Source of the DNA: Candidatus Daviesbacteria bacterium
GTDB lineage: Bacteria; Patescibacteriota; Microgenomatia; Daviesbacterales; UBA10151
NCBI GenBank assembly: GCA_016176465.1
Contig: JACOXD010000004.1
Span: 50,119 to 114,118, forward strand
Reading direction: 5' to 3'
Length of the DNA: 64,000 bases
Both the position numbers and the translations under genes were made by a program. Positions 1,239 to 63,371 of this stretch are shown one piece after another. Each line of letters begins with the position of its first letter. Position 1 is the stretch's first letter. The notes beneath the pieces are model-generated. The model was not told the origin of the DNA. It was given only the letters and a program-made list of their open reading frames with translations, and did not search any database.

Positions 1239-1268
1239 TCCTTCTCCGCCAGCCGGCGGATCAGGACA
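1239..1268. repeat. Fragment of the MITE-like repeat family (tccttctccgccagcYggcggatcagga), near-identical to the copy at 40340-40368
   Basis: 28/30 nt identity with the internal module of the element at 40264-40372. Confidence 0.5.
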
Positions 1269-4364: not shown

Positions 4365-4427
4365 TGTCATTCTGAACCGTAGGCGAAGAATCTATATCAT
4401 GAGATCCTTCACTCCGTTCAGGATGAC
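4365..4427. repeat. MITE/REP-like nested palindrome element (tgtcattctga...gaagaatct...agatccttc...tcaggatgac)
   Basis: Outer inverted repeat gtcattctga/tcaggatgac and inner inverted repeat gaagaatct/agatccttc; lies between mltG and ruvX. Confidence 0.75.
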
Positions 4428-4440
4428 TCCCAAGACAGAG

Positions 4441-4821
4441 TCAGTTTAGCGAATCTAAAAAATTTTGTAAAATTAAAGCCGCAGCGTATGAATCTTCTTT
4501 CTCTTTTTTGGAAACTCCAATTTTTAACATTAAATCTTTAGCATCATGAGAAGTTAAAGTTTCATCAGTTTCTATCACCACTACCTTAGGGTATTTTTTT
4601 AATTCCTTAATAAACTTTTTAACTAAAGCTTTACTCTCCCCACTTTCTGCAACTCCAATAACTACCCTTTCTATTTCTTCCTGCTCTATAACCTTCTTTA
4701 TTTTATAAAGTGCATCATTTAATCCATTAATCTTTAAGGTTTTATAAATTGAGGCAATCGCTCCATCAGATAGCGCTAAGCCTATTTTTTTCTTACCATA
4801 ATCAACTCCTAAATACTTCAT
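4441..4821 (-). CDS. ruvX: Holliday junction resolvase-like protein RuvX/YqgF
   Basis: MKYLGVDYGKKKIGLALSD, the YqgF/RNase H-like fold signature. Confidence 0.85.
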   Translation of the reverse strand: MKYLGVDYGKKKIGLALSDGAIASIYKTLKINGLNDALYKIKKVIEQEEIERVVIGVAESGESKALVKKFIKELKKYPKVVVIETDETLTSHDAKDLMLKIGVSKKEKEDSYAAALILQNFLDSLN

Positions 4822-4828
4822 ATTGATT

Positions 4829-4904
4829 TGTCATTCTGATACGTAAGTGAAGAATCTAAAGAAAGATCCTTCTCCCCTCCGGGGGGCCCGCGCTCAGGAT
4901 GACA
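4829..4904. repeat. MITE/REP-like element with a GC-rich mini-hairpin insert (cccctccggggggcccgcg)
   Basis: Same terminal and inner inverted repeats as 4365-4427; begins 8 nt upstream of the ruvX start. Confidence 0.75.
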
Positions 4905-7854: not shown

Positions 7855-8016
7855 ATGACAAAAGCGTTAACTGGAAAGAAGGGATTATCCCGGGCCAATC
7901 CAGGAGCTGGGTACGATGAGCATTCCCGTTGATAACGTAATAATCTAAATCAAGAAGCAAGCCAGGTGGTACCACGAAGTTAGACCTTCGTCCTAGCAAA
8001 GGATGGAGGTTTTTTT
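7855..8016 (+). promoter_or_regulatory. Candidate T-box riboswitch leader (tRNA-Ala sensing) with a terminator that sequesters the SD
   Basis: T-box core aagccaGGTGGTACCACGaag at 7957-7978; terminator ccuucgucc-uagcaaa-ggauggagg-U7 at 7986-8016 includes GGAGG; GCU-containing candidate specifier region gagcuggg. Confidence 0.55.
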
Positions 8017-9915
8017 GTGAAATCATCTGATATTAGAAAAAAATATTTAGAATTTTTCCAAAAAAGAGGACATAAAATAATTCCCTCCTCTTCTTTAGTG
8101 CCGGAAAATGACCCGACTACTTTATTTACTGGTTCTGGAATGCAGCCGATGATTCCTTATCTTTTAGGAGAACCTCATCCAGAGGGAAAAAGAATAGTTG
8201 ATTCCCAAGTGGCTTTTAGATCCCAAGATATTGAAGAAGTAGGTGATAATCGTCATGACACTTTATTTGAGATGCTGGGTAATTGGAGCTTGGGAGACTA
8301 TTTCAAAAAAGAGCAACTAAGTTGGTATTTCGAATTTTTAACCAAGGAGTTAAACCTTGATCCAAGTAAAATTTACGTTAGTGTTTTTATTGGAGATGAA
8401 AAAAATAAACTTCCTAAAGATATTGAGTCAGCAAAGATCTGGAAGGAGCTTTTTTCCAAAAAAGGAATTGAAGCTAAAGATTTTGAATTTGGTTCAATGG
8501 AGGATGCTGCAAAAATGGGGATGAAAGATGTCAGAATTTTTTATTATGATGCTTTAAAAAATTGGTGGTCCAGAGTTGGTGAACCGGAAAACATGCCTGC
8601 TGGAGAACCGGGTGGTCCGGATTCTGAAGTATTTTATGATTTTGGTTTAGAGCATGATCCAAAGTATGGTAAATATTGCCATCCTAATTGTGACTGCTCT
8701 AGGTTTGTAGAAATTGGTAATTCGGTTTTTATGCAATATATCAAACAATCGGATGGAAGTTTTAAAGAATTACCTCATAAAAATGTTGACTTTGGAGGAG
8801 GATTGGAGCGAACTTTAATGGCTGTTAATAATGAACCAGATATGTTCAAAAACGATCTCCATTTTCCAATAATTGAAAAACTTATTAAAGATACAGGTAA
8901 TGAATATGGAAAAGATGCAAAAGCTACCTCAGCTTTTAGGATTGTTGCTGATCACTTAAAAGCGGCTACATTTTTAATAAAAAATGGCGTCACTCCATCT
9001 AACAAACAACAAGGCTATGTCTTAAGAAGATTGCTTCGAAGATCCGCTGTTAAATTATCTGATTATGACTTGGATTTTGTAGATACTTTGGCCAATCTTT
9101 CTGGAGTAGTTATTGATATCTATCAGGGGACTGATTATTTTGGCAAAGACGATAATGAAAATATTAAAAAAGTGATTATTGATGAGTTAGAAAAGTTTGA
9201 AAAAACAATCAAACATGGACTAAAAGAAATAGAGAAAATAGAGAAAATTACTGGCAAAGTTGCCTTTTACTTTTATCAGACTTTTGGTTTTCCCTTAGAG
9301 ATAACTGCAGAGGTAGCTAAAGAAAAAGGACAGGAAATTAATTTTAAAGAATTTGAAGAAGAGTATAAATTACATCAAGAATTATCTAGAACAACCTCAG
9401 CTGGTACTTTTAAAGGAGGTTTGGCAGATGCTAAAGAACAAACTACTAAACTCCATACCGCTAATCACTTAATGCAAGCTGCACTAAGACAAATTTTAGG
9501 AGAGCATGTTAGACAACACGGATCAAATATAACAGCCGAGAGACTAAGATATGATTTTTCTCATGATCAAAAATTAAGTGATGCGGAAATCAAAAAAGTT
9601 GAAAATTTAGTAAATGAACAAATCAAGAAAGATTTAAAAGTATGGTTTGATATTGAAGATAGAGACCAGGCAATTAAAGATGGCGCTTTAACGAATGTTG
9701 GCGAGAGCTATCCTGATAAGGCCAAAGTTTATAAAATTGGCACCCTGCCCAGTCATCCCGATGAGTCCACGATATCGGAATCTCTCTTCTCTAAAGAGCT
9801 CTGTGGCGGGCCACATGTGGAACATACAGGTGTAATTGGAAAATTTAAAATTCTAAAACAAGAGTCTTTAGGTGCAGGTTTAAAAAGAATTTATGCTACA
9901 ATTGACAAAATATAA
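8017..9915 (+). CDS. alaS: Alanyl-tRNA synthetase, short form lacking the C-Ala domain (GTG start)
   Basis: Class II AlaRS N-terminus; editing-domain HTANHLMQAAL (HxxxH) and CGGPHV; 632 aa. Confidence 0.9.
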   Translation: MKSSDIRKKYLEFFQKRGHKIIPSSSLVPENDPTTLFTGSGMQPMIPYLLGEPHPEGKRIVDSQVAFRSQDIEEVGDNRHDTLFEMLGNWSLGDYFKKEQLSWYFEFLTKELNLDPSKIYVSVFIGDEKNKLPKDIESAKIWKELFSKKGIEAKDFEFGSMEDAAKMGMKDVRIFYYDALKNWWSRVGEPENMPAGEPGGPDSEVFYDFGLEHDPKYGKYCHPNCDCSRFVEIGNSVFMQYIKQSDGSFKELPHKNVDFGGGLERTLMAVNNEPDMFKNDLHFPIIEKLIKDTGNEYGKDAKATSAFRIVADHLKAATFLIKNGVTPSNKQQGYVLRRLLRRSAVKLSDYDLDFVDTLANLSGVVIDIYQGTDYFGKDDNENIKKVIIDELEKFEKTIKHGLKEIEKIEKITGKVAFYFYQTFGFPLEITAEVAKEKGQEINFKEFEEEYKLHQELSRTTSAGTFKGGLADAKEQTTKLHTANHLMQAALRQILGEHVRQHGSNITAERLRYDFSHDQKLSDAEIKKVENLVNEQIKKDLKVWFDIEDRDQAIKDGALTNVGESYPDKAKVYKIGTLPSHPDESTISESLFSKELCGGPHVEHTGVIGKFKILKQESLGAGLKRIYATIDKI

Positions 9916-10597: not shown

Positions 10598-10634
10598 ACC
10601 TAAATCACCCGGAGGGTGTTAAGAGGACTTCTTT

Positions 10635-10718
10635 ACAGGTGTAATTGGAAAATTTAAAATTATTAAACAGGAAACTTTGGGATCAGGACTTAGAAGAATC
10701 TATGCCAAGGTTTCGTGA
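10635..10718 (+). pseudogene. Orphaned duplicate of the alaS 3' end (last 28 codons), left downstream of the VapBC cassette
   Basis: 27 nt identical to alaS 9826-9852 (acaggtgtaattggaaaatttaaaatt), then a homologous in-frame tail TGVIGKFKIIKQETLGSGLRRIYAKVS*. Confidence 0.6.
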
Positions 10719-30374: not shown

Positions 30375-30500
30375 ACAGTAGACGATGGAGGATAGAAGAT
30401 AGAACTTTGAGGACAGAAGATAGAAATTAGAGTTTTACTATTCTACCTTCCATTTTCCATCTTCAAAACACTATCTTCCACATTCTATCATCTATTTATG
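30375..30500 (-). promoter_or_regulatory. Long imperfect hairpin in the pnp 5' leader (candidate RNase III/autoregulatory site)
   Basis: gatggaggatagaagatagaa...ggacagaagatagaaa facing inverted copies ttctaccttccattttccatcttc...ctatcttccacattctatcatc. Confidence 0.35.
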
Positions 30501-30563
30501 TCATTCTGAGTGAAGCAAAGAATCTCATCTCTAGATCCTTCGGGCTCTACCCTCAGGATGACA
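30499..30563. repeat. MITE/REP-like element between pnp and rpsO
   Basis: tgtcattctgag...aagaatctcatctctagatcctt...cctcaggatgaca. Confidence 0.75.
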
Positions 30564-37218: not shown

Positions 37219-37231
37219 TAGTTTATTTTTG

Positions 37232-37813
37232 TCATTCCGTGCTTGACACGGAATCCATATTATAACTCTTTAATGTGTTTAGATTATCTGGTAAATGATC
37301 CATACCTTCAAACTCCCTAACAACAATAGACTTTATTTTTTTCTTTAACTTAGGATCAATATAAGGATAAACCATTTCTTCCTCCCCACCAATGCTTTCA
37401 CAATCATCTTCTATATAGATATCAGGCACTAGACTTTCTACTATATCTTTATACTCTTCCCCTTGTTGCCTAAAATAAAGATTCTTTTGATCTGGAAAAT
37501 TAAACTTTTTTAAAACATCTTTTATATCTTCAATTTCCTTTTTGATTCTTCTGGATGTTAAATACATTATAACTACTCCTTGGTTTTTCCAAGTTGTTAT
37601 CTTTTGAACTGCATTACTAATTGGAATATAGCTAGCATAGTCATGAACAGACCCAGGTGGAATTTCATGCGTTATATTTGTTCCATATTTTAGAGTGTTT
37701 TCCTCTCTTTGGACACCAGCTTCATGAGAGCGTTTTACTCTTTCTTGACGATTCAAACCCTTAGCATTTTGATACATTAGGATTGTCCCTTCTGTAAAAA
37801 TTAGTACTTTCAT
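37232..37813 (-). CDS. Hypothetical protein inserted between dnaK and dnaJ (start moved to MKVLIF, 193 aa)
   Basis: The listed 226-aa ORF runs through a terminator and a repeat element at its 5' end; the internal Met at 37813 avoids both. Confidence 0.35.
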
Positions 37814-37816
37814 AAT

Positions 37817-37846
37817 CAAAAAAGCCTCGGAGATCTTCCGAGGCGA
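37817..37846 (-). terminator. Intrinsic terminator downstream of dnaK
   Basis: Minus strand: gccucggaagaucuccgaggc followed by UUUUUU. Confidence 0.5.
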
Positions 37847-37848
37847 TT

Positions 37849-37960
37849 TGTCATTCTGATCCTGAGCGTAGCCGAAGGAGAAGAATCTCAAGATTAGATC
37901 CTTCTGGTTCAATAGACCATCAGGTCTTCGACCCTGAGGCTCAGACCCGAAGGGATGATA
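37849..37960. repeat. Composite MITE/REP-like element between dnaK and the downstream ORF
   Basis: tgtcattctga + tcctgagcgtagccgaagga + gaagaatct...agatccttc + GC-rich tail. Confidence 0.7.
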
Positions 37961-39902: not shown

Positions 39903-40217
39903 TTAAGCTCCTCTCATTTCCTGACGTCTTTTTATCACATTAGGAATATCTTGTTCTCTATGCCAAACCTCAGTTCCTAAATTTCTTATATTATCTATAA
40001 AGCCACCAATTGGACCTCCAAATCTGACTCGTTTAAAACTTCTAAGTGTCTGCACGTAAGATTCGTTTCCAAATGGATTACCAATTTCCTCGTCTTTAAG
40101 ATCTGTCACTTCAACTCTATCTTCTCTATAAGCCTTTAAAGCATCAACAAACCATCTTACTGGACCAATTACAGTTTTTGCTACTTTTTCAGATATCATT
40201 CTTAGTTGTTCATTCAT
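39903..40217 (-). CDS. Hypothetical 104-aa protein encoded between grpE and dnaK
   Basis: ORF tightly abutting the dnaK start (2-nt gap); no recognisable domain. Confidence 0.4.
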
Positions 40218-40263: not shown

Positions 40264-40372
40264 TGTCATTCTGAACTTGATTCAGAATCTTTTCTGTCAT
40301 TTCGATACGTAAGTGAGAAATCTCCAGACTAATCTTGAGATCCTTCTCCGCCAGCTGGCGGATCAGGATAAC
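40264..40372. repeat. Tandem (truncated plus full) MITE/REP-like element containing the ccgccagctggcgg mini-hairpin
   Basis: tgtcattctgaacttgattcagaatc followed by tgtcatttcgatacgtaagtgagaaatct...gatccttctccgccagctggcggatcaggataac. Confidence 0.7.
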
Positions 40373-40929
40373 AATTCCTTCCTCCCTACAACTACCTTTG
40401 CAGGTTTAATCACTTTTCCCCCTAAAGTATACCCTTTTTCTACAATTTCTAAAATAATATTATCATCACCATCTTTGGTGTCAACTGCTTCATGAAGGCT
40501 GGGATCAAACCGGGTACCACCCGTCCCGTGCGAAGACACGGGATCTATCTCAATCTCCTCCAACCCTTCATCAGCTAATACTGCTTGAAGCTGTTGTAAA
40601 GCTAACTCCACTCCCCTAAACCAACCTGATTCTCTATCTTCCTCTGATGCTCCTTTAATTGCTTTTTCAAAATGATCCAAAACAGGCAATATTTTAATAA
40701 TTAAATTAGCATTTGCCCAAGAACTTAATTCACCTCTTGCCTCTTGAATTCTTTTTTCTAAATTTTGATAATCAGCAACTGCTCTTTTGAGTTGATTTCT
40801 GATATCTTCATGATCTACCTTTACTCTTGCCAACTCCTCCTGTAGCTCTTGTACCTCTGCTTTTTTAGTAGCTTGAGAAATTACATCATCATGAGTATTA
40901 TTTTGATTATCTTCTTTTTGTTTTTTCAT
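40363..40929 (-). CDS. grpE: Nucleotide exchange factor GrpE
   Basis: Coiled-coil N-terminus and GrpE C-terminal domain (GYTLGGKVIKPAKVVV). Confidence 0.85.
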   Translation of the reverse strand: MKKQKEDNQNNTHDDVISQATKKAEVQELQEELARVKVDHEDIRNQLKRAVADYQNLEKRIQEARGELSSWANANLIIKILPVLDHFEKAIKGASEEDRESGWFRGVELALQQLQAVLADEGLEEIEIDPVSSHGTGGTRFDPSLHEAVDTKDGDDNIILEIVEKGYTLGGKVIKPAKVVVGRKELLS

Positions 40930-44138: not shown

Positions 44139-44663
44139 ATGGGTAAAGATAAAATCCAGCAAATTGAGCTAAAAACAAGAGATATCTTAGAGCAAGTTTT
44201 AGGAAAAATTATAGATCTAAAACCTCCTATTAATTTAGCCAAAGTTTTAGAGTATTTTGATGTTTCTTTAAGTCTGGCACGTTTTAAAGTTCCATCAGTT
44301 GCTGGAGCTTTTGATAAGAGATTAAAAATGATTTATCTATCAAAAGATGAACCATACAAAAGACAATTTTTTACAGCAGCTCATGAGTTAGGACACTTAG
44401 TTTTAAATCATAAAAAAAACTTTGATGTTTTTTATAGACAACAGCTTTCAGAGTTTAATGGTTTATCCGCCGAAGCTAGAGCGAAGGAGGGAAAAGCTTC
44501 TGAAGAAAAAGAAGCAAATTATTTTGCAGCATCCTTACTAATGCCCGAAGAATTAGTTAAAAAATTCTGGAATGAGAAAAAAGATATAGAACTTTTAGCA
44601 GCTTACTTTGGTGTCTCCCGTTCTGCTGCCTACTGGAGACTTAAAAACTTAAAGGTTATTTAA
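44139..44663 (+). CDS. ImmA/IrrE-family (DUF955) zinc metallopeptidase
   Basis: HELGHLVLNH (HExxH), EEKEANYFAASLLMP. Confidence 0.55.
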   Translation: MGKDKIQQIELKTRDILEQVLGKIIDLKPPINLAKVLEYFDVSLSLARFKVPSVAGAFDKRLKMIYLSKDEPYKRQFFTAAHELGHLVLNHKKNFDVFYRQQLSEFNGLSAEARAKEGKASEEKEANYFAASLLMPEELVKKFWNEKKDIELLAAYFGVSRSAAYWRLKNLKVI

Positions 44664-46495: not shown

Positions 46496-46888
46496 ATGAA
46501 TACTCAAAATGTTATTGATAAATTTAGAGGCAAAATTTTGGGAAATCAGGCAACTAAGAAAATTATTGCTGAAACTTTACTTTTACTTCCAGAGAAAACT
46601 ATAGAGGATTTATCTAAACATGTTTGGTTTATGTCCTCTTTTGATGATGCCTGGGCATATACTTTTAGAGGGAATGATCTAAAAGGGAAAAAGATGATCT
46701 TTTTATCTGATGAGTTATTATCTCAAGATAAAGAATCTATTCAGTTCACTATCCTCCATGAAGTAGGACATGTAGTTTTAAACCATAGAAATTCAATTAA
46801 CTTTAGACAAACTAGAGAAGAGGTTAACAAACAAGAGCAAGAAGCAGATAAATTTGCTTTTAGATACTTAAACCAATCTTTTCTCTAG
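46496..46888 (+). CDS. Second ImmA/IrrE-family (DUF955) metallopeptidase
   Basis: ILHEVGHVVLNH, EQEADKFAFRYLN. Confidence 0.6.
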   Translation: MNTQNVIDKFRGKILGNQATKKIIAETLLLLPEKTIEDLSKHVWFMSSFDDAWAYTFRGNDLKGKKMIFLSDELLSQDKESIQFTILHEVGHVVLNHRNSINFRQTREEVNKQEQEADKFAFRYLNQSFL

Positions 46889-57400: not shown

Positions 57401-58132
57401 TTAAATGAAACCGTGCGCTGAAACTTGACCTCCCTGTTGAGAAGGCGCTTCCATTAAAACTGCTCGTACATGAGCCTCTACCAATTTAGACATAACCTCC
57501 CCATCTCCTTGATCCATAAAGTACTCCAATATAGTAAAGTAATTCTCCTGATCTGAATCGTCACCTGAGATAAATTGTTTAGCCCAGGCTATCGCCGCAA
57601 CTCTACGATGAGCTAGTTCTACTCTATCTGGTCCTTCGTAAATTTTTCTCACTTGCTCAAGGGGAATCAGTTTCTTATCGTCTTTTCCTAGAAGCAAGGA
57701 TCCGGCCAATTTAGCAAACCCATCACAGATTTCACCATGTAATTCTCCCATCCTTTCTTGAAGTGGAGTTCTTAACCCTGCTGCGGAAGTATAGAATGCC
57801 TCTGCCAATAACTCTAACTTCTCGCGCGTATTAGGAAGAGAATCCCAATCACTTCTAAAAAACGCCGGTACTCCAATTGAAAACCTCTGCGCTTCAGTAT
57901 AGGCCGGATCAGTTCTCACTCCTGCTAATCCACGAGCTGCCAAACTCATCGCTTCAGCCAAAGCTTCATTCCTATTCGGCGCCATCTCTCCATGTGGGCT
58001 AATCAACACATCTATTATTCCTCTTCCCACAACATACATCTCATGAGGCCTTAGAGAACCTGGATCTTGCTCGAATCTTGCTAATAAATCCGGACTTGCC
58101 ATAATTGCTGGGTAATATAAACCTATAGGCAT
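57401..58132 (-). CDS. Hypothetical protein, Ala/Arg/Gly-rich, higher GC (likely acquired)
   Basis: No motif recognised; composition differs from its neighbours. Confidence 0.35.
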   Translation of the reverse strand: MPIGLYYPAIMASPDLLARFEQDPGSLRPHEMYVVGRGIIDVLISPHGEMAPNRNEALAEAMSLAARGLAGVRTDPAYTEAQRFSIGVPAFFRSDWDSLPNTREKLELLAEAFYTSAAGLRTPLQERMGELHGEICDGFAKLAGSLLLGKDDKKLIPLEQVRKIYEGPDRVELAHRRVAAIAWAKQFISGDDSDQENYFTILEYFMDQGDGEVMSKLVEAHVRAVLMEAPSQQGGQVSAHGFI

Positions 58133-58192: not shown

Positions 58193-58256
58193 TGTCATTC
58201 TGAGGCGGAGCCGAAGAATCTAATCTAGATCCTTCACCAGAACGTTCAGGATGACA
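58193..58256. repeat. MITE/REP-like element immediately upstream of uvrD
   Basis: tgtcattctgaggcggagccgaagaatctaatctagatccttcaccagaacgttcaggatgacag. Confidence 0.75.
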
Positions 58257-58265
58257 GTAAACCAT

Positions 58266-60311
58266 ATGCCCAATAAGCTCCTAGATGATTTAAACCCTAT
58301 CCAACAACAAGCTGTTAAAGCAACTGAGGGCCCTAATTTGGTTTTAGCTGGAGCAGGATCAGGAAAAACAAGAGTACTAACCTACAAGGTTGCATATTTA
58401 ATTTCTGAAAAAAAAGTTCCTGCAGAAGACATAGTTTGTTATACATTTACTAATAAGGCCGCAGGGGAAATGCGAGACCGAATCCTTAAGCTTCTTCAAC
58501 TATACGCTAAACCCTACACCCTAAACGCTATTCCTTTAATGGGTACATTCCACTCTATCTGTGCCAAGATTTTAAGGAAAGAAGGATATAATATTGGGCT
58601 ATCCCCTGGCTTTTCTATTTATGATGAAGGGGATGCGCTAGATGCTGTTAAAGAAGCAATGAAGAATTTAAATCTAGCTACTCAAAAAATTAACCCTGGT
58701 GCTGTTAGGCATACAATTTCATCAGCTAAAAATGAACTAATTTCAGAGTTAGAATATCCCCAAATGATAAGGGGTTATTTTCAAGAAACTGTAGCTAAAG
58801 TTTATTTAGAATATCAAAAAATTTTAAGGCAAAACCAGGCTTTGGATTTTGATGATTTATTAATGAGCACTATTCAACTATTTCAAAGTAACCCTCCAGT
58901 ACTGGCGCGCTATCAAAACCAGTTTCAATATATTTTAGTAGATGAGTATCAAGATACTAATGCCGCTCAGTATCAGCTAATAAAACTTTTAGCTGCGAAA
59001 CACCGAAACATTTGTGTAGTTGGCGACTTCGCACAGGCGATATATAGCTTCAGAGGCGCTGATTATCGAAATATGCTTAGTTTCCAAAAAGATTATCCTG
59101 AGGCTAAGGTATTTAATTTAGAACAAAACTACCGCTCTACTCAAATTATTTTAGATGCAGCCCAAGCTGTAATCTCAGAAAATAAACTGCATCCTATTTT
59201 AAAGCTGTGGACTGATAAAAAAGGTGGCGTAAAAATTAAAATCTTCCAAGCCCGCTCTGAAGTTGAAGAAGCGTTATTTATAGTAGAACAAATACAAACT
59301 CTTACTAGAGCGAGGGGTGACGGCGAGCGGGGTGCCCCATTGAGTCCACGCAGTGAAACGAGGAGATCGAATGGGGCTGCAAGCCGGCAGAACCCGGAGC
59401 AAATGAGTCTATCGGATTTTGCAGTTTTATATCGTACTAATGCTCAATCCAGAGCGCTGGAAGAGGTTTTCCTAAAGTCAGGTATTCCTTATAAATTAGT
59501 AGGCGGGGTGCAATTTTATGAGCGAAAAGAGATTAAGGATGTTTTATCTTATTTAAAGCTATTGCAAAATCCTAAAGATTCTATAGCTATAAAAAGAATA
59601 GAAAAAATAGGTAAGCTTAGGGCTTCTAAATTTTTTGAATTTCAACAGGTCATCCTGAACCCTTCGCTACGCTCGAGGGTGAACTCCGTGAAGGATCCAG
59701 ATTCTTCTCAGGCGAAGCCTGATCAGAATGACAGTATTCCCTTTACCACCCTAGAACTTTTAGATCAAATTTTATCTTTAACCGGTTACTTAGCATATTT
59801 AGACGATGGGAGTGAACAAGGAAAAGTTAGGGTAGAAAACGTTAAAGAGTTACGCTCTGTTGCGGAAGAGTTTCCTAATTTAGTTTTATTTTTGGAAAAT
59901 GTAGCTTTAGTTCAAGAAAACCAGCTACCTGAAAGTAAAAGAAAAATGGATCAAGAAGCTGTTACTTTAATGACAATTCATGCCTCCAAAGGTTTGGAAT
60001 TTCCAGTTATATTTTTAACTGGAATGGAGGAAGGTTTATTCCCCCACTCCCGTTCTATGCTTGATCCCAGTGAAATGGAGGAAGAAAGACGTTTAGCTTA
60101 TGTAGGAATTACCAGAGCAAAAGATAAATTATTTTTAACTCATACCCGCTCAAGATTATATTTTGGAAGTAAAACAAATAGCATTGTCTCCCGTTTTATT
60201 ATGGCAATACCAGAAAAGCTACTGGATTTATCTGAAGGTTTCAGAGATTCTGATAGATTTGATGATGATATAACTCCTATTAATGATGAGGAAGAGTGGT
60301 TAAATGGATAA
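58266..60311 (+). CDS. uvrD: UvrD/PcrA-family DNA helicase carrying two in-frame insertions (start moved to MPNKLLDDLNPIQQQAV)
   Basis: GAGSGKT Walker A, DEYQDTN, YRSTQ, VLYRTNAQSR, MTIHASKGLEF, VGITRAK; the listed ATG at 58251 lies inside the repeat terminus tcaggATGACAG. Confidence 0.85.
   Translation: MPNKLLDDLNPIQQQAVKATEGPNLVLAGAGSGKTRVLTYKVAYLISEKKVPAEDIVCYTFTNKAAGEMRDRILKLLQLYAKPYTLNAIPLMGTFHSICAKILRKEGYNIGLSPGFSIYDEGDALDAVKEAMKNLNLATQKINPGAVRHTISSAKNELISELEYPQMIRGYFQETVAKVYLEYQKILRQNQALDFDDLLMSTIQLFQSNPPVLARYQNQFQYILVDEYQDTNAAQYQLIKLLAAKHRNICVVGDFAQAIYSFRGADYRNMLSFQKDYPEAKVFNLEQNYRSTQIILDAAQAVISENKLHPILKLWTDKKGGVKIKIFQARSEVEEALFIVEQIQTLTRARGDGERGAPLSPRSETRRSNGAASRQNPEQMSLSDFAVLYRTNAQSRALEEVFLKSGIPYKLVGGVQFYERKEIKDVLSYLKLLQNPKDSIAIKRIEKIGKLRASKFFEFQQVILNPSLRSRVNSVKDPDSSQAKPDQNDSIPFTTLELLDQILSLTGYLAYLDDGSEQGKVRVENVKELRSVAEEFPNLVLFLENVALVQENQLPESKRKMDQEAVTLMTIHASKGLEFPVIFLTGMEEGLFPHSRSMLDPSEMEEERRLAYVGITRAKDKLFLTHTRSRLYFGSKTNSIVSRFIMAIPEKLLDLSEGFRDSDRFDDDITPINDEEEWLNG
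59309..59403 (+). repeat. GC-rich structured insertion inside uvrD (in frame, ~32 codons)
   Basis: gagcgaggggtgacggcgagcggggtgccccattgag...tcgaatggggctgcaagccggcag; ~65% GC; encodes RARGDGERGAPLSPRSETRRSNGAASRQNPEQ, absent from canonical UvrD. Confidence 0.4.
59649..59734. repeat. MITE/REP-like element inserted in frame inside uvrD
   Basis: gtcatcctgaacccttcgctacgctcgagggtgaactccgtgaaggatccagattcttctcaggcgaagcctgatcagaatgacag; encodes VILNPSLRSRVNSVKDPDSSQAKPDQNDS. Confidence 0.7.
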
Positions 60312-61000: not shown

Positions 61001-61026
61001 CCATCCTGAGCGTAGTCGAAGGATAG
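61001..61026. repeat. Short fragment of the repeat family (atcctgagcgtagtcgaaggat)
   Basis: Matches the internal module tcctgagcgtagccgaagga of the element at 37849-37960. Confidence 0.5.
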
Positions 61027-61037
61027 ATATATATCTT

Positions 61038-61838
61038 TTATAAAAATTTAAATGTTTCAATTATCTTTTCATATATAGCTTTATTTTTATCAGGGTTTCC
61101 TGAAGTTTGAGCCGGATTTATAATGATCTCATAAATTTTATCTCCTTTTAATGCAACTATATTAGCTTCAACCCCTACTTGTCCCCCGCAACATCCATCT
61201 ATTCTTAATGCGTCTAGTCCTCCTAGTTTAGTATTCTTAATCTCTATATCTTTTAAGCTATCTTTACCATATTTTATAAATAAACCCTTCCCAAAATACT
61301 GTTCCAAATTTTCCCTTGTGTACCCTTCATTATTCTTTTTTATTCCTATCGATACTTGGTAAGTTACTGCTAGGGGCTTTTCTTCATTAAAAATGTCATT
61401 AGGCTCTAAATTAATAATGCCTGGCCAAGAGGCATTTATATTAGCTGGACCACTCCTTATTGAATATTTATCAAGTGGATACTCTATTTGATAAAACCTT
61501 GTTGCCTGATAAGTACTCCAATTTGTAGAATCAGATTTGCTATCTTCTAATTCTTTAAACTCATCCTCTAGTCTTTTCTGTTCCTCTTCACTAAGTTTTT
61601 GGGTAAAACTTCTTCCATCTTTAGTATTACACTGAGTAGGATAAGATTCCATCACTGGATAATATTTTGCACACTCTTCAAAAGAATTAATATTTTTAAT
61701 TCTTTGCTGCTGAAAATAGAAATATGTACCGTATACTAATCCTGCAAAAATCACTACAGCTAAAAGTATAACTACTAAAGAAAACCCTTTTGCATTAAGT
61801 TTTTTTGATTTCAAGTGGGATGGAGATAGTATGAACAT
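61038..61838 (-). CDS. Type IV pilin-like protein, paralog A (real start probably downstream of 61838)
   Basis: KGFSLVVILLAVVIFAGL prepilin-like N-terminus (no Glu5), Cys-rich C-terminus RIDGCCGG; the listed N-terminus overlaps the neighbouring ORF by 44 nt. Confidence 0.45.
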   Translation of the reverse strand: MFILSPSHLKSKKLNAKGFSLVVILLAVVIFAGLVYGTYFYFQQQRIKNINSFEECAKYYPVMESYPTQCNTKDGRSFTQKLSEEEQKRLEDEFKELEDSKSDSTNWSTYQATRFYQIEYPLDKYSIRSGPANINASWPGIINLEPNDIFNEEKPLAVTYQVSIGIKKNNEGYTRENLEQYFGKGLFIKYGKDSLKDIEIKNTKLGGLDALRIDGCCGGQVGVEANIVALKGDKIYEIIINPAQTSGNPDKNKAIYEKIIETFKFL

Positions 61839-62438: not shown

Positions 62439-63371
62439 CTAATCACAATAATGGTATTTTGTCCCTCTTGAACAACCCATGACAGCACAACTTTCACTTT
62501 TGCTCGTTTTTATATCCTCAGCTTTAATTTCATCTAAACTATCCCCCTTACTTTTGTATAAACATTGCGTCTCAGCTGGAACTCCTCCGCAACACCCGCA
62601 TCCACAAGCCGTATAACTATTAGCCTCTATATCTTCAGCAACATTCTGATCTAAAAATTTAAAAGTAGAGATAATTTTCTCGTATAACCCATTATCCTCT
62701 TTTGGCCACAAAAAAAGATTAGGTTCAATAGCGATCAAATATCTTGGATTGCTGGGGATAGAGATTAAGGTTTGTTGTTTTCCAGATGAAGTCACAACTG
62801 AGTAATATTCACCAAAAATATTACTAACTTTTTTTACTATTTCTTTCGGGGCATTAGGCAGACATGAACTGCCCATATTACATTGAGGATATTCTAATCC
62901 ATATTTTTTTGCTTCTTCCAAACTTGAGATATCAGCTGATTTAGCAATTACGGAAATTTTAATAGAATACGTTGGCGCTTCATTAACTCCAGCCTTAAAG
63001 GTATTCTCTGTTTGTTCACTATCAAATCTTATATTATCTGCGTCAGAATCATAAATATTCCAATTACTGGGATAGCTAATTCTATAGCTCCATTTATCAT
63101 TTGTATAAATTTTCCAATCAGATATATCAACAGGTGGTTTTAGTTTTTCCTGTTCCTCCTCACTTAACTGCTCAGTAAAACTTTTTCCATCTTTAGATTT
63201 GCACTGTCTGGGGTAACTCTCTAAAACAGGATTTCCTGCTTTAACGCACTCTTCAAAAGAATTTATATTTTTGATTTTTTGCTGCTGAAAATAAGAATAA
63301 GTTCCATAAGCTAAACCAGCAAGGATAAGTAAAGCTATTAGAACAATTACTAGCGAAAATCCTTTTTGCAT
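62439..63371 (-). CDS. Type IV pilin-like protein, paralog B (Cys-rich C-terminus)
   Basis: MQKGFSLVIVLIALLILAGLAYG prepilin-like N-terminus; C-terminal CGCGCCGG...CAVMGC...HYC. Confidence 0.45.
   Translation of the reverse strand: MQKGFSLVIVLIALLILAGLAYGTYSYFQQQKIKNINSFEECVKAGNPVLESYPRQCKSKDGKSFTEQLSEEEQEKLKPPVDISDWKIYTNDKWSYRISYPSNWNIYDSDADNIRFDSEQTENTFKAGVNEAPTYSIKISVIAKSADISSLEEAKKYGLEYPQCNMGSSCLPNAPKEIVKKVSNIFGEYYSVVTSSGKQQTLISIPSNPRYLIAIEPNLFLWPKEDNGLYEKIISTFKFLDQNVAEDIEANSYTACGCGCCGGVPAETQCLYKSKGDSLDEIKAEDIKTSKSESCAVMGCSRGTKYHYCD

Follow-up and report, generated by a model that had tools for sequence, protein, structure and literature searches.

Short palindromic repeats scattered over a 64,000-nt stretch of a Candidatus Daviesbacteria contig (the window, to whose full length all counts "in the window" refer) are probably gene-less pairs of Ssn-related motifs (SRMs), the repeat class that includes the Neisseria repeats NTS and dRS3. 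Seven composite elements, each made of two facing hairpin modules, and several solo units are found in the window. They are best read as resembling REPINs, reportedly described by Bertels and Rainey, together with the REP-associated tyrosine transposases (RAYTs), as doublets of repetitive extragenic palindromic (REP) sequences that form hairpins, and not as classical MITEs (miniature transposable elements with inverted repeats). The finding is explained by the Ssn/SRM system published in 2025 (PMC11893778); its new parts are a sequence variant of the motif, a host group, the candidate phyla radiation (CPR), and an insertion in frame within a protein-coding gene.

In the published system, the Neisseria NTS is CGTCATTCCCGCGMAVGCGGGAATCYRG, a superset of the dRS3 repeat, and its relatives are termed SRMs (Chenal et al. 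2025, Nat Commun, PMC11893778). SsnA, a 94-amino-acid single-domain GIY-YIG nuclease, binds NTS/SRM and cuts single-stranded DNA (ssDNA) only, on one strand and a few nt upstream. Three nt before the palindrome are needed for cleavage, and the C after the palindrome is the most important base for binding by N. meningitidis SsnA. The motif is found near 71% of Ssn homologues and on both sides of 42%, and the NTS-ssnA-NTS layout resembles an insertion sequence (IS). Rickettsia and Wolbachia are among the SRM-richest genomes, with more than 300 SRMs listed for Rickettsia, and NTS is rarely located inside genes (2%) (PMC11893778).

The repeat family and its hairpin module

The repeat family is confirmed as real and non-random. 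Every coordinate listed in the initial annotation of this DNA holds the sequence described there, and the dispersed, modular palindromic family that it proposed is borne out by motif, rule-based and covariance-model scans of the window, which is AT-rich (31-41% G+C). The motif TGTCATTCTGA, with at most one mismatch, has 11 matches against 1.27 expected from dinucleotide shuffles, and none of 100 shuffles reached 11. A rule-based scan for half-units (GTCA-N4-GA-loop-GA-rcN4-TC) recovers 10 units against 0-2 in shuffles, and a covariance model built from foreign units only recovers 11 window units with E<0.1 plus 5 weaker matches, exactly at the reported places. The inner 9-mer GAAGAATCT by itself is weakly enriched (47 matches against 31 expected), so the case rests on the combined architecture.

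A module is about 25-50 nt long and reads (T)GTC-A-N4-GA-[mini-hairpin]-GA-N4'-T-C. Its parts are an invariant 5' (T)GTC, an A-T closing pair, a covarying 4-bp stem, a tandem G.A/A.G internal loop (hence GA-type), a central mini-stem of 2-3 bp with a GNA triloop cap, and an invariant C after the stem. A composite consists of one module, a spacer of 5-15 nt and the reverse complement of a second module, with the GTCAT ends facing outward. In the + orientation the left module is T-type (ATTCT/AGAAT) and the right module is C-type (ATCCT/AGGAT). Each module pairs perfectly with itself; whichever strand is taken, pairing of left with right includes one G.U and one A.C. Since the stems covary, every module forms a hairpin by itself. 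The inverted repeats described as outer and inner in the initial annotation are present in the sequence, although they are better read as two facing, self-pairing modules, and its interchangeable GC-rich mini-hairpins are the module loops, some of which hold a nested second GA module (37849-37888).

The module is a selected hairpin. Among 634 loose matches in 1.95 Mb of fetched loci, the outer stem is perfectly complementary over 4 nt in 524, with 13 kinds of stem and a chance expectation of 1/256, and there are only 4 cases of the mixed combination TTCT/AGGA. These loose matches are the unbiased evidence for the outer stem, the covariation of which in a 65-sequence alignment was built in by the selection; the inner mini-stem, on which the selection placed no constraint, covaries in that alignment as well (GC 40, AU 17, GU 5; CG 50, UG 7, UA 4). 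Within the genome, the stem TTTC/GAAA at 40295 and the stem TTCT/AGAA at 4829 enclose the same loop, TACGTAAGT, which amounts to a double compensatory change. With the exception of this 9-nt loop, loops and spacers differ in every copy, and the sharing of the core only gives no sign of a very recent burst.

Outside the stems, G2, T3, C4 and A5 do not vary among 65 units of other organisms, and nearly all window modules begin with (T)GTCAT, the exceptions being the 61001 unit (CCAT), the right arms of E7 (GTTAT) and E6 (ATCAT) and the truncated 1239 arm (element names as in Table 1). The C after the palindrome is invariant in the foreign-unit alignment (column 26) and all 10 rule-matched window modules end in ...AT-C; it is missing from the truncated 1239 arm and the degenerate 61001 unit. 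As sense-strand RNA, full elements fold at -27 to -31 kcal/mol (z -3.5 to -5.7), and they fold more weakly as DNA.

Association with small GIY-YIG nuclease genes

Open reading frames (ORFs) within 2.5 kb of an element were clustered at 120 genome loci. Neither a transposase nor a Y1 family was found among these neighbours. The largest cluster was an ABC ATPase, and there was no common neighbour, with one exception: a small protein in three loci, which is a single-domain GIY-YIG protein of ~95 amino acids (PF01541). The three genes came from the first 242 fetched loci, all in the genome-contig set. This nuclease takes the place of the IS200/IS605 TnpA or RAYT partner suggested by the initial annotation. 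At loci L237 and L223 the GIY-YIG gene is directly flanked by modules, and at L198, a CPR locus, an NTS-type unit with a CTTGA loop directly precedes the gene. The layout in L237 is module, 24 nt, ATG...TGA, 6 nt and inverted module, with a gene-less copy carrying the same arms adjoining it. The protein has a distant PDB match to a UPF0213 protein (E 0.0015). No transposase, Y1/RAYT or GIY-YIG gene is present in the window, as judged by Pfam scans and, for GIY-YIG, a six-frame search.

An independent test used 80 metagenome loci picked by homology to the GIY-YIG protein only. Of 75 loci, 44 have a GA-type module no more than 150 nt upstream; a downstream module is present in 36 of 78, and 31 loci have one on each side. 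The density of modules, 2.26 per kb for distances of 0-150 nt, is 1.86 per kb for distances of 150-300 nt, drops to ~0 at 600-1050 nt, and is 0.10 per kb beyond 1.5 kb, about 20-fold lower than at the gene. The commonest layout has inverted arms around the GIY-YIG gene, with 29 and 16 nt between them and the domain ends. Relatives of the protein are named from Patescibacteria, Doudnabacteria and Moranbacteria, and CPR examples of module-flanked genes include L198, L325 and L327.

In L325 (positions 1380-1980; Patescibacteria, GCA_041666325.1), the gene directly upstream of uvrD is a GIY-YIG gene of Ssn-like type, flanked by several SRM hairpins. One of these hairpins ends 6 nt before the uvrD start, the same place as that of the gene-less E8 in the window, and the CTTGA-loop hairpin type of the window units at 37230 and 40264 also flanks this GIY-YIG gene. 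Contigs with Ssn-like genes are mostly very short, often <3 kb. This fits a gene and repeats that break metagenome assemblies, and the system is therefore probably under-represented in metagenome-assembled genomes.

In-frame insertion in UvrD

The initial annotation placed the elements at gene boundaries, which holds for the other composites. E9 (59649-59732) is located inside the uvrD/pcrA ORF, where it makes up exactly 28 codons of the UvrD_C domain, translated as VILNPSLRSRVNSVKDPDSSQAKPDQND. Two insertion hot spots (columns 439-506 and 600-657) emerge when 118 homologues are aligned with the window protein; at these sites some proteins have 8-49 extra residues and many have none. The extra peptides at both hot spots are translations of this repeat class in a single frame (GTC ATY ... 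AAT GAC; VI...ND). Insert subtypes differ by lineage (VILxxxKDL...QND, VIASxAKQS...IATS..PRND and VIPAKAGIQ...GDD), the last being the translation of the canonical Neisseria-type NTS. The translated inserts gave no NCBIfam or Pfam match at E up to 10, the presence of models of Rickettsia palindromic elements (RPEs) in those libraries being unchecked.

The closest UvrD relatives of the window protein, at no more than 72% identity, bear the name Candidatus Daviesbacteria (Microgenomates/Patescibacteria). In the syntenic locus L324 (UvrD 72% identical), E8 upstream of uvrD, E9 and the first-hot-spot insert are all absent and the flanks are conserved. In L323 (UvrD 64% identical), a 57-nt insert with the same arm types occupies the exact position of E9 and differs from it by a compensatory mini-hairpin change, CAGGC/GCCTG versus CCGGC/GCCGG. 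Pairs have been gained and lost at orthologous sites without duplication, and as the closer relative is without the E9 insert and the more distant one has it, there have been independent gains or a precise loss at this site. The constant frame is not obviously accounted for by independent insertion alone; for the constant frame together with subtypes that track lineage, re-insertion or gene conversion from other genomic copies would be the obvious candidates. Recent activity of the elements is not supported, as the copies have diverged and a lineage with a UvrD of only 64% identity has the uvrD insert too. Near-identical empty sites were sought by an exact-protein look-up of rpsO, which gave nothing, and a look-up of ruvX, which gave the identical population only. 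The same population is found base for base in two Logan assemblies, where E2 is identical, and is contained in SRR12113424 and SRR12113420.

E8 bears on the annotation of the gene. The longest uvrD ORF opens at an ATG at 58251 inside E8 (GGATGACA, 58251-58268), whereas L324, without E8, keeps the ATG at 58266, which makes 58266 the true start of uvrD. The first UvrD hot spot contains a second palindromic insert, which is GC-rich, in frame and 29 amino acids long (ARGDGERGAPLSPRSETRRSNGAASRQNP, 59310-59396; RNA fold -37.7 kcal/mol). This insert lacks a GTCAT module and is the only copy of its kind in the window. Other Daviesbacteria UvrD proteins (P0001, P0006, P0011, P0063) have related 'RGD...G...RQDPE' peptides at both hot spots, and the insert therefore belongs to a separate repeat family.

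Distribution and element ends

The initial annotation had raised the possibility of copies confined to the window. The composite occurs across bacterial phyla and is confined neither to the window nor to this genome. A composite pattern with 28 specified bases matches at least 120 stretches in one-genome-per-species contigs, against ~0.01 expected in 596 Gb by our own calculation, and the matches span more than 15 bacterial phyla. They include Nitrospirota (Nitrospirales), Omnitrophota, Patescibacteria, Saccharibacteria and Curtissbacteria; Bacteroidota (Flavobacterium, Pedobacter, Mucilaginibacter) and Ignavibacteriota; Acidobacteriota, Bacillota (Clostridia), Planctomycetota, Chloroflexota and Deinococcota (Trueperaceae); and Pseudomonadota, Coxiellaceae, Rickettsiales, Myxococcales, Bdellovibrionales and others. 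In Pedobacter nototheniae (L140, 3547-4109), four composites ~135 nt apart with conserved sequence between them form a tandem array and are not dispersed.

Viral contigs also match the T-type half-unit pattern (at least 164 matches). The loop GCGNAGC is dominant, accounting for 58 of 164 among the matches listed, with GCGAAGC commonest, and the viral set contains 35 convergent module pairs with a median spacer of 22 nt. A rule by which the two arms must differ (T-type versus C-type) was considered and dropped: the arms differ in 26 of 35 short viral pairs and are the same in 15 of 22 gene-bearing units.

No target-site duplication was detected. In 102 full elements at k=2-6, flank matches equal the shuffled expectation, and none is present at the window flanks. 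Position -1 is T in 79 of 102 elements and position +1 is A in 77 of 102, other flank positions being weakly biased. A BLAST search of E8 against PLSDB plasmids gave no match. Literature searches with raw repeat sequences gave chance matches only, and a search for 'palindromic element' with Patescibacteria gave none.

Weighing the explanations

The layout of the window pairs is the same as that of the modules around Ssn-type genes elsewhere, which suggests that the window copies are gene-less derivatives of an SRM-ssn-SRM unit. Several observations weigh against assignment to the SRM class and against mobility driven by Ssn. The published degenerate SRM pattern, HGTCWYN(0-2)YYVSBRHN(0-5)WNVSBRGN(0-2)RNCYNB, in an implementation that recognises the two NTS variants tested, matches none of the window modules, and it matches only 2 of the 80 GIY-YIG loci as compared with 50 of 80 for the GA-type rule. 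No nearby GA-type module was found in 30 of those 80 loci. The window contains no ssn-like gene by six-frame search or Pfam, and the associated GIY-YIG proteins, for which Pfam PF01541 is the family shown, are candidate members of CDD cd10448. Motif mobility driven by Ssn was raised by its discoverers as a hypothesis only (PMC11893778). As the published pattern fails, membership is based on shared architecture and association with the gene.

Other explanations account for part of these data. A chance or low-complexity similarity without any family, named in the initial annotation as a refutation, could appeal to the weak enrichment of the inner 9-mer; motif, composite, stem-complementarity, half-unit and covariance-model enrichment are all far above expectation, and this explanation is already refuted, with a negligible probability. 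The short length, inverted repeats of 11 nt or more at the termini, several dispersed copies and presence or absence between relatives are all expected of a classical MITE, that is, an IS deletion derivative moved in trans by a DDE transposase that reads terminal inverted repeats. Such an origin is nevertheless very improbable because there is no target-site duplication, the window is without a transposase, the only recurrent gene between or beside the arms is the 95-amino-acid GIY-YIG gene, and covarying stems are unexpected for inverted repeats read by a protein. The non-autonomous mobile element of the initial annotation therefore stands in so far as the elements behave as non-autonomous relatives of a gene-carrying unit, but not as a MITE. 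Mobilisation of a REP/REPIN by a RAYT, a Y1 transposase of IS200/IS605 type, would equally account for the architecture, a pair of imperfect hairpins in inverted orientation that have the 5' tetranucleotide conserved, are separated by a short spacer and lack target-site duplication. It is just as improbable as the MITE, given that the 5' tetranucleotide is GTCA and not GTAG, that Y1 families are absent from the neighbours at the 120 loci and from the window, and that the association found is with GIY-YIG genes.

A functional RNA module (terminator, RNase target, mRNA stabiliser or small RNA) under selection at the RNA level, with dispersal being secondary, was the alternative offered by the initial annotation. 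The strong sense-strand folds are consistent with it, as are the position of most copies in transcribed untranslated regions (UTRs) beside stop or start codons and the same orientation relative to transcription in six of the seven composites. On the other hand, the elements have no Rfam match at gathering or E-value thresholds, modules occur in both orientations and also in coding sequence as translated inserts, E6 is followed by a separate terminator-like hairpin, the core is conserved across phyla whatever the neighbouring genes, and the published partner enzyme works on ssDNA and is inactive on RNA (PMC11893778). An RNA module is accordingly unlikely, though less so than a MITE or a RAYT-driven element; secondary RNA-level effects of the UTR copies are possible but not indicated. 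Gene-less SRM pairs remain the preferred explanation.

Proposed mechanism and significance

The pairs would originate when an SRM-ssn-SRM unit loses its gene, a relation comparable to that of REPINs to RAYTs. In ssDNA arising during replication, repair or DNA uptake, each module could fold, and a cognate Ssn would bind the folded module and nick that strand only, a few nt 5' of GTC. Because this nick would be strand-specific, an inverted pair would be cut just outside both of its ends, on opposite strands, and the nicking step may move or copy the pair. Spread would occur without target-site duplication, and copies would persist wherever they are tolerated, as in UTRs, gene ends and protein surface loops; persistence in a protein loop would require a length that is a multiple of three and an open frame (GTC ATY ... 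AAT GAC). The genome would accordingly be expected to encode an Ssn that cleaves GA-type modules and drives their spread. A host function such as restriction of incoming ssDNA may also exist; the window encodes PilN/PilO.

A broader proposal can be put forward, although it is doubtful at present. Gene-less GA-type SRM pairs might be a REPIN-like replicator mobilised in trans by Ssn-family nucleases, one system near base-for-base across more than 15 phyla and a general cause of in-frame palindromic insertions (the RPE phenomenon, here in a CPR UvrD), with hot-spot copies being continually replaced to match the nuclease specificity of each genome.

How palindromic elements enter protein-coding genes is a question dating from 2000. 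Ssn provides a concrete, testable candidate enzyme for this entry. The window also bears on two standing questions, the role of Ssn/SRM outside Neisseria and the mobility of the repeats: SRM pairs travel without the gene and without duplication, and are found in frame inside an essential-type helicase of a reduced CPR genome. GA-type modules flank most of the related nuclease genes in the metagenome sample and are missed by the published pattern, so current SRM counts are probably underestimates. Genome annotation is affected as well: the elements introduce false start codons (uvrD 58251) and spurious ORFs and provide stop codons (grpE).

Copies in the window

The copies in the window, their structure and their context are summarized in Table 1. 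Small ORFs adjoining E7 and E8 (39903-40217 and 57401-58132) were considered as GIY-YIG remnants, which they are not. Scans with Rfam covariance models, both at gathering score and with E values up to 5, matched none of the elements.

Table 1. Repeat elements in the 64-kb window and the helicase gene that hosts one of them; genes were identified with Pfam, and bits and E values refer to the covariance model.
Feature	Position	Strand	Structure	Context
Half element, metK leader	1239..1268	-	C-type right arm only, TCCTTC-TCCGCCAGCCGGCGGA-TCAGGACA; 96% identical to E7 right arm	metK leader
E2 composite	4365..4428	+	T-type 4365-4393 (+), C-type 4402-4428 (-), 8-nt spacer; 41 and 29.1 bits	Between mltG/YceG start (4359) and ruvX stop (4441)
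E3 composite	4829..4904	+	T-type 4829-4857 (+), C-type 4864-4904 (-) with GC-rich loop	Between ruvX start (4821) and sortase stop (4937)
E4 composite	30499..30563	+	T-type 30499-30525 (+), C-type 30533-30563 (-); 37.2 and 31.3 bits	rpsO-pnp intergenic region, 7 nt from rpsO stop
Solo NTS-like module	37230..37256	+	GTCATTCCGTG-CTTGA-CACGGAATC, perfect hairpin without GA pairs; DNA fold -7.8 kcal/mol, z -5.1; E 0.18	Between dnaJ start and stop of upstream hypothetical ORF
E6 composite	37849..37960	+	T-type with nested C-type core in loop (37849-37888), then degenerate expanded right arm	Begins 2 nt past dnaK stop codon; intrinsic-terminator-like hairpin follows on gene strand (~37822-37847)
E7 composite	40264..40373	+	NTS-like 40264-40290 (+), TTTC/GAAA module 40295-40323 (+), C-type 40338-40373 (-)	Between small ORF and grpE; its end supplies the last three sense codons of grpE and the TGA stop (40363-40365)
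E8 composite, uvrD 5' leader	58193..58256	+	T-type 58193-58221 (+), C-type 58227-58256 (-)	9 nt upstream of conserved uvrD start codon (58266)
uvrD/pcrA helicase gene	58266..60311	+		Hosts E9 and a second in-frame palindromic insert
E9 composite in uvrD/pcrA	59649..59732	-	84 nt; C-type first in mRNA, T-type 59699-59733 (-)	In frame in uvrD/pcrA
Degenerate solo C-type module	61001..61026	+	CCATCCTGAGCGTAGTCGAAGGATAG; E 0.71	Between convergent genes

Other features of the window

Beside the half element in the metK leader there is a long GC-rich hairpin (1270-1340; the region 1215-1340 folds at -54 kcal/mol), which has no Rfam match, SAM riboswitches included. Two weak SRM-like hairpins are located in coding sequence, GTCATCCCGAT...ATCGGAATC near the alaS 3' end (9751-9783, model E 8) and GTCCCGTG-CGAAGA-CACGGGATC inside grpE (40517-40539); both could be in-frame modules that have decayed, or could match by chance. 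An example of a spurious ORF is 37232-37912, in which the N-terminal part is encoded by element sequence.

Directly upstream of the alanyl-tRNA synthetase gene (8017-9915), positions 7858-7998 give a T-box leader-like match (34.4 bits, E 6e-4, gathering score 93), plausibly a divergent T-box. A direct repeat of 72 nt with 82% identity (9825-9896 and 10634-10705) is found at the alaS 3' end and near a PIN-domain gene, and is unrelated to the SRM modules. Two further direct repeats, likewise unrelated to the modules, correspond to paralogous genes: 61569-61791 and 63141-63366 to two ORFs without Pfam matches (61038-61838 and 62439-63371), and 44382-44416 and 46757-46791 to two IrrE/M78-peptidase paralogues.

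Comparison with known systems

Bacterial MITEs such as Correia/NEMIS, RUP and QMITE share with the window elements a short, non-coding sequence, terminal inverted repeats, overlap with gene ends and the ability to supply start or stop codons, and differ from them in having target-site duplications and a transposase-bearing parent. QMITE1/2 of Coxiella, at 150-400 bp and with direct repeats, were set aside. The likeness to REPINs extends to a non-autonomous unit of two hairpin repeats in inverted orientation around a short spacer, to the lack of target-site duplication, to a cognate gene flanked by the repeats and to a proposed recognition of hairpins in ssDNA. In contrast to REPIN/RAYT, the partner is a GIY-YIG protein rather than a Y1/HUH transposase, the 5' end is GTCA rather than GTAG, and the distribution is cross-phylum rather than lineage-restricted.

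RPEs insert in frame into unrelated housekeeping genes and into intergenic DNA (PMC10969869). E9 resembles them in adding a peptide at a tolerated site of a protein-coding gene. RPEs are about 100-150 bp long and are reported from Rickettsia, whereas the translated window inserts match no NCBIfam or Pfam family. RPE modules may be related in sequence to those of the window. REPINs and RPEs are the closest behavioural parallels, with membership failing on the partner enzyme for the former and probably on sequence models for the latter.

The Ssn/SRM system is approached more nearly than any of these. Like SRM/NTS, the window modules are oriented hairpins that start with (C/T)GTCAT, form a semi-palindrome of 20-50 nt and have a C directly after it; they are mostly intergenic and occur across phyla, with tens to hundreds of copies in the published system. 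In both cases a GIY-YIG gene of ~94 amino acids is flanked by the motif, on both sides in 42% of the published homologues and in 31 of 80 loci here. The window units at 37230 and 40264 are, like NTS, plain hairpins with a CTTGA loop. NTS has continuous G-C pairs at the place where most window modules instead have the tandem G.A/A.G and a mini-hairpin capped by GNA. Aligned by eye, NTS reads GTCATTCC-C-GC-GAAA-GC-G-GGAATC and the GA-type reads GTCATTCC-GA-GC-GAA-GC-GA-GGAATC, the tandem G.A/A.G standing where the NTS stem has a C-G pair. The window elements are further set apart from NTS by a CPR host and by their arrangement in tight gene-less inverted pairs, one of them translated inside a gene. 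Since the numbers obtained here and the invariant GTC...C match those of the published system closely (PMC11893778), the window elements probably belong to the SRM kind.

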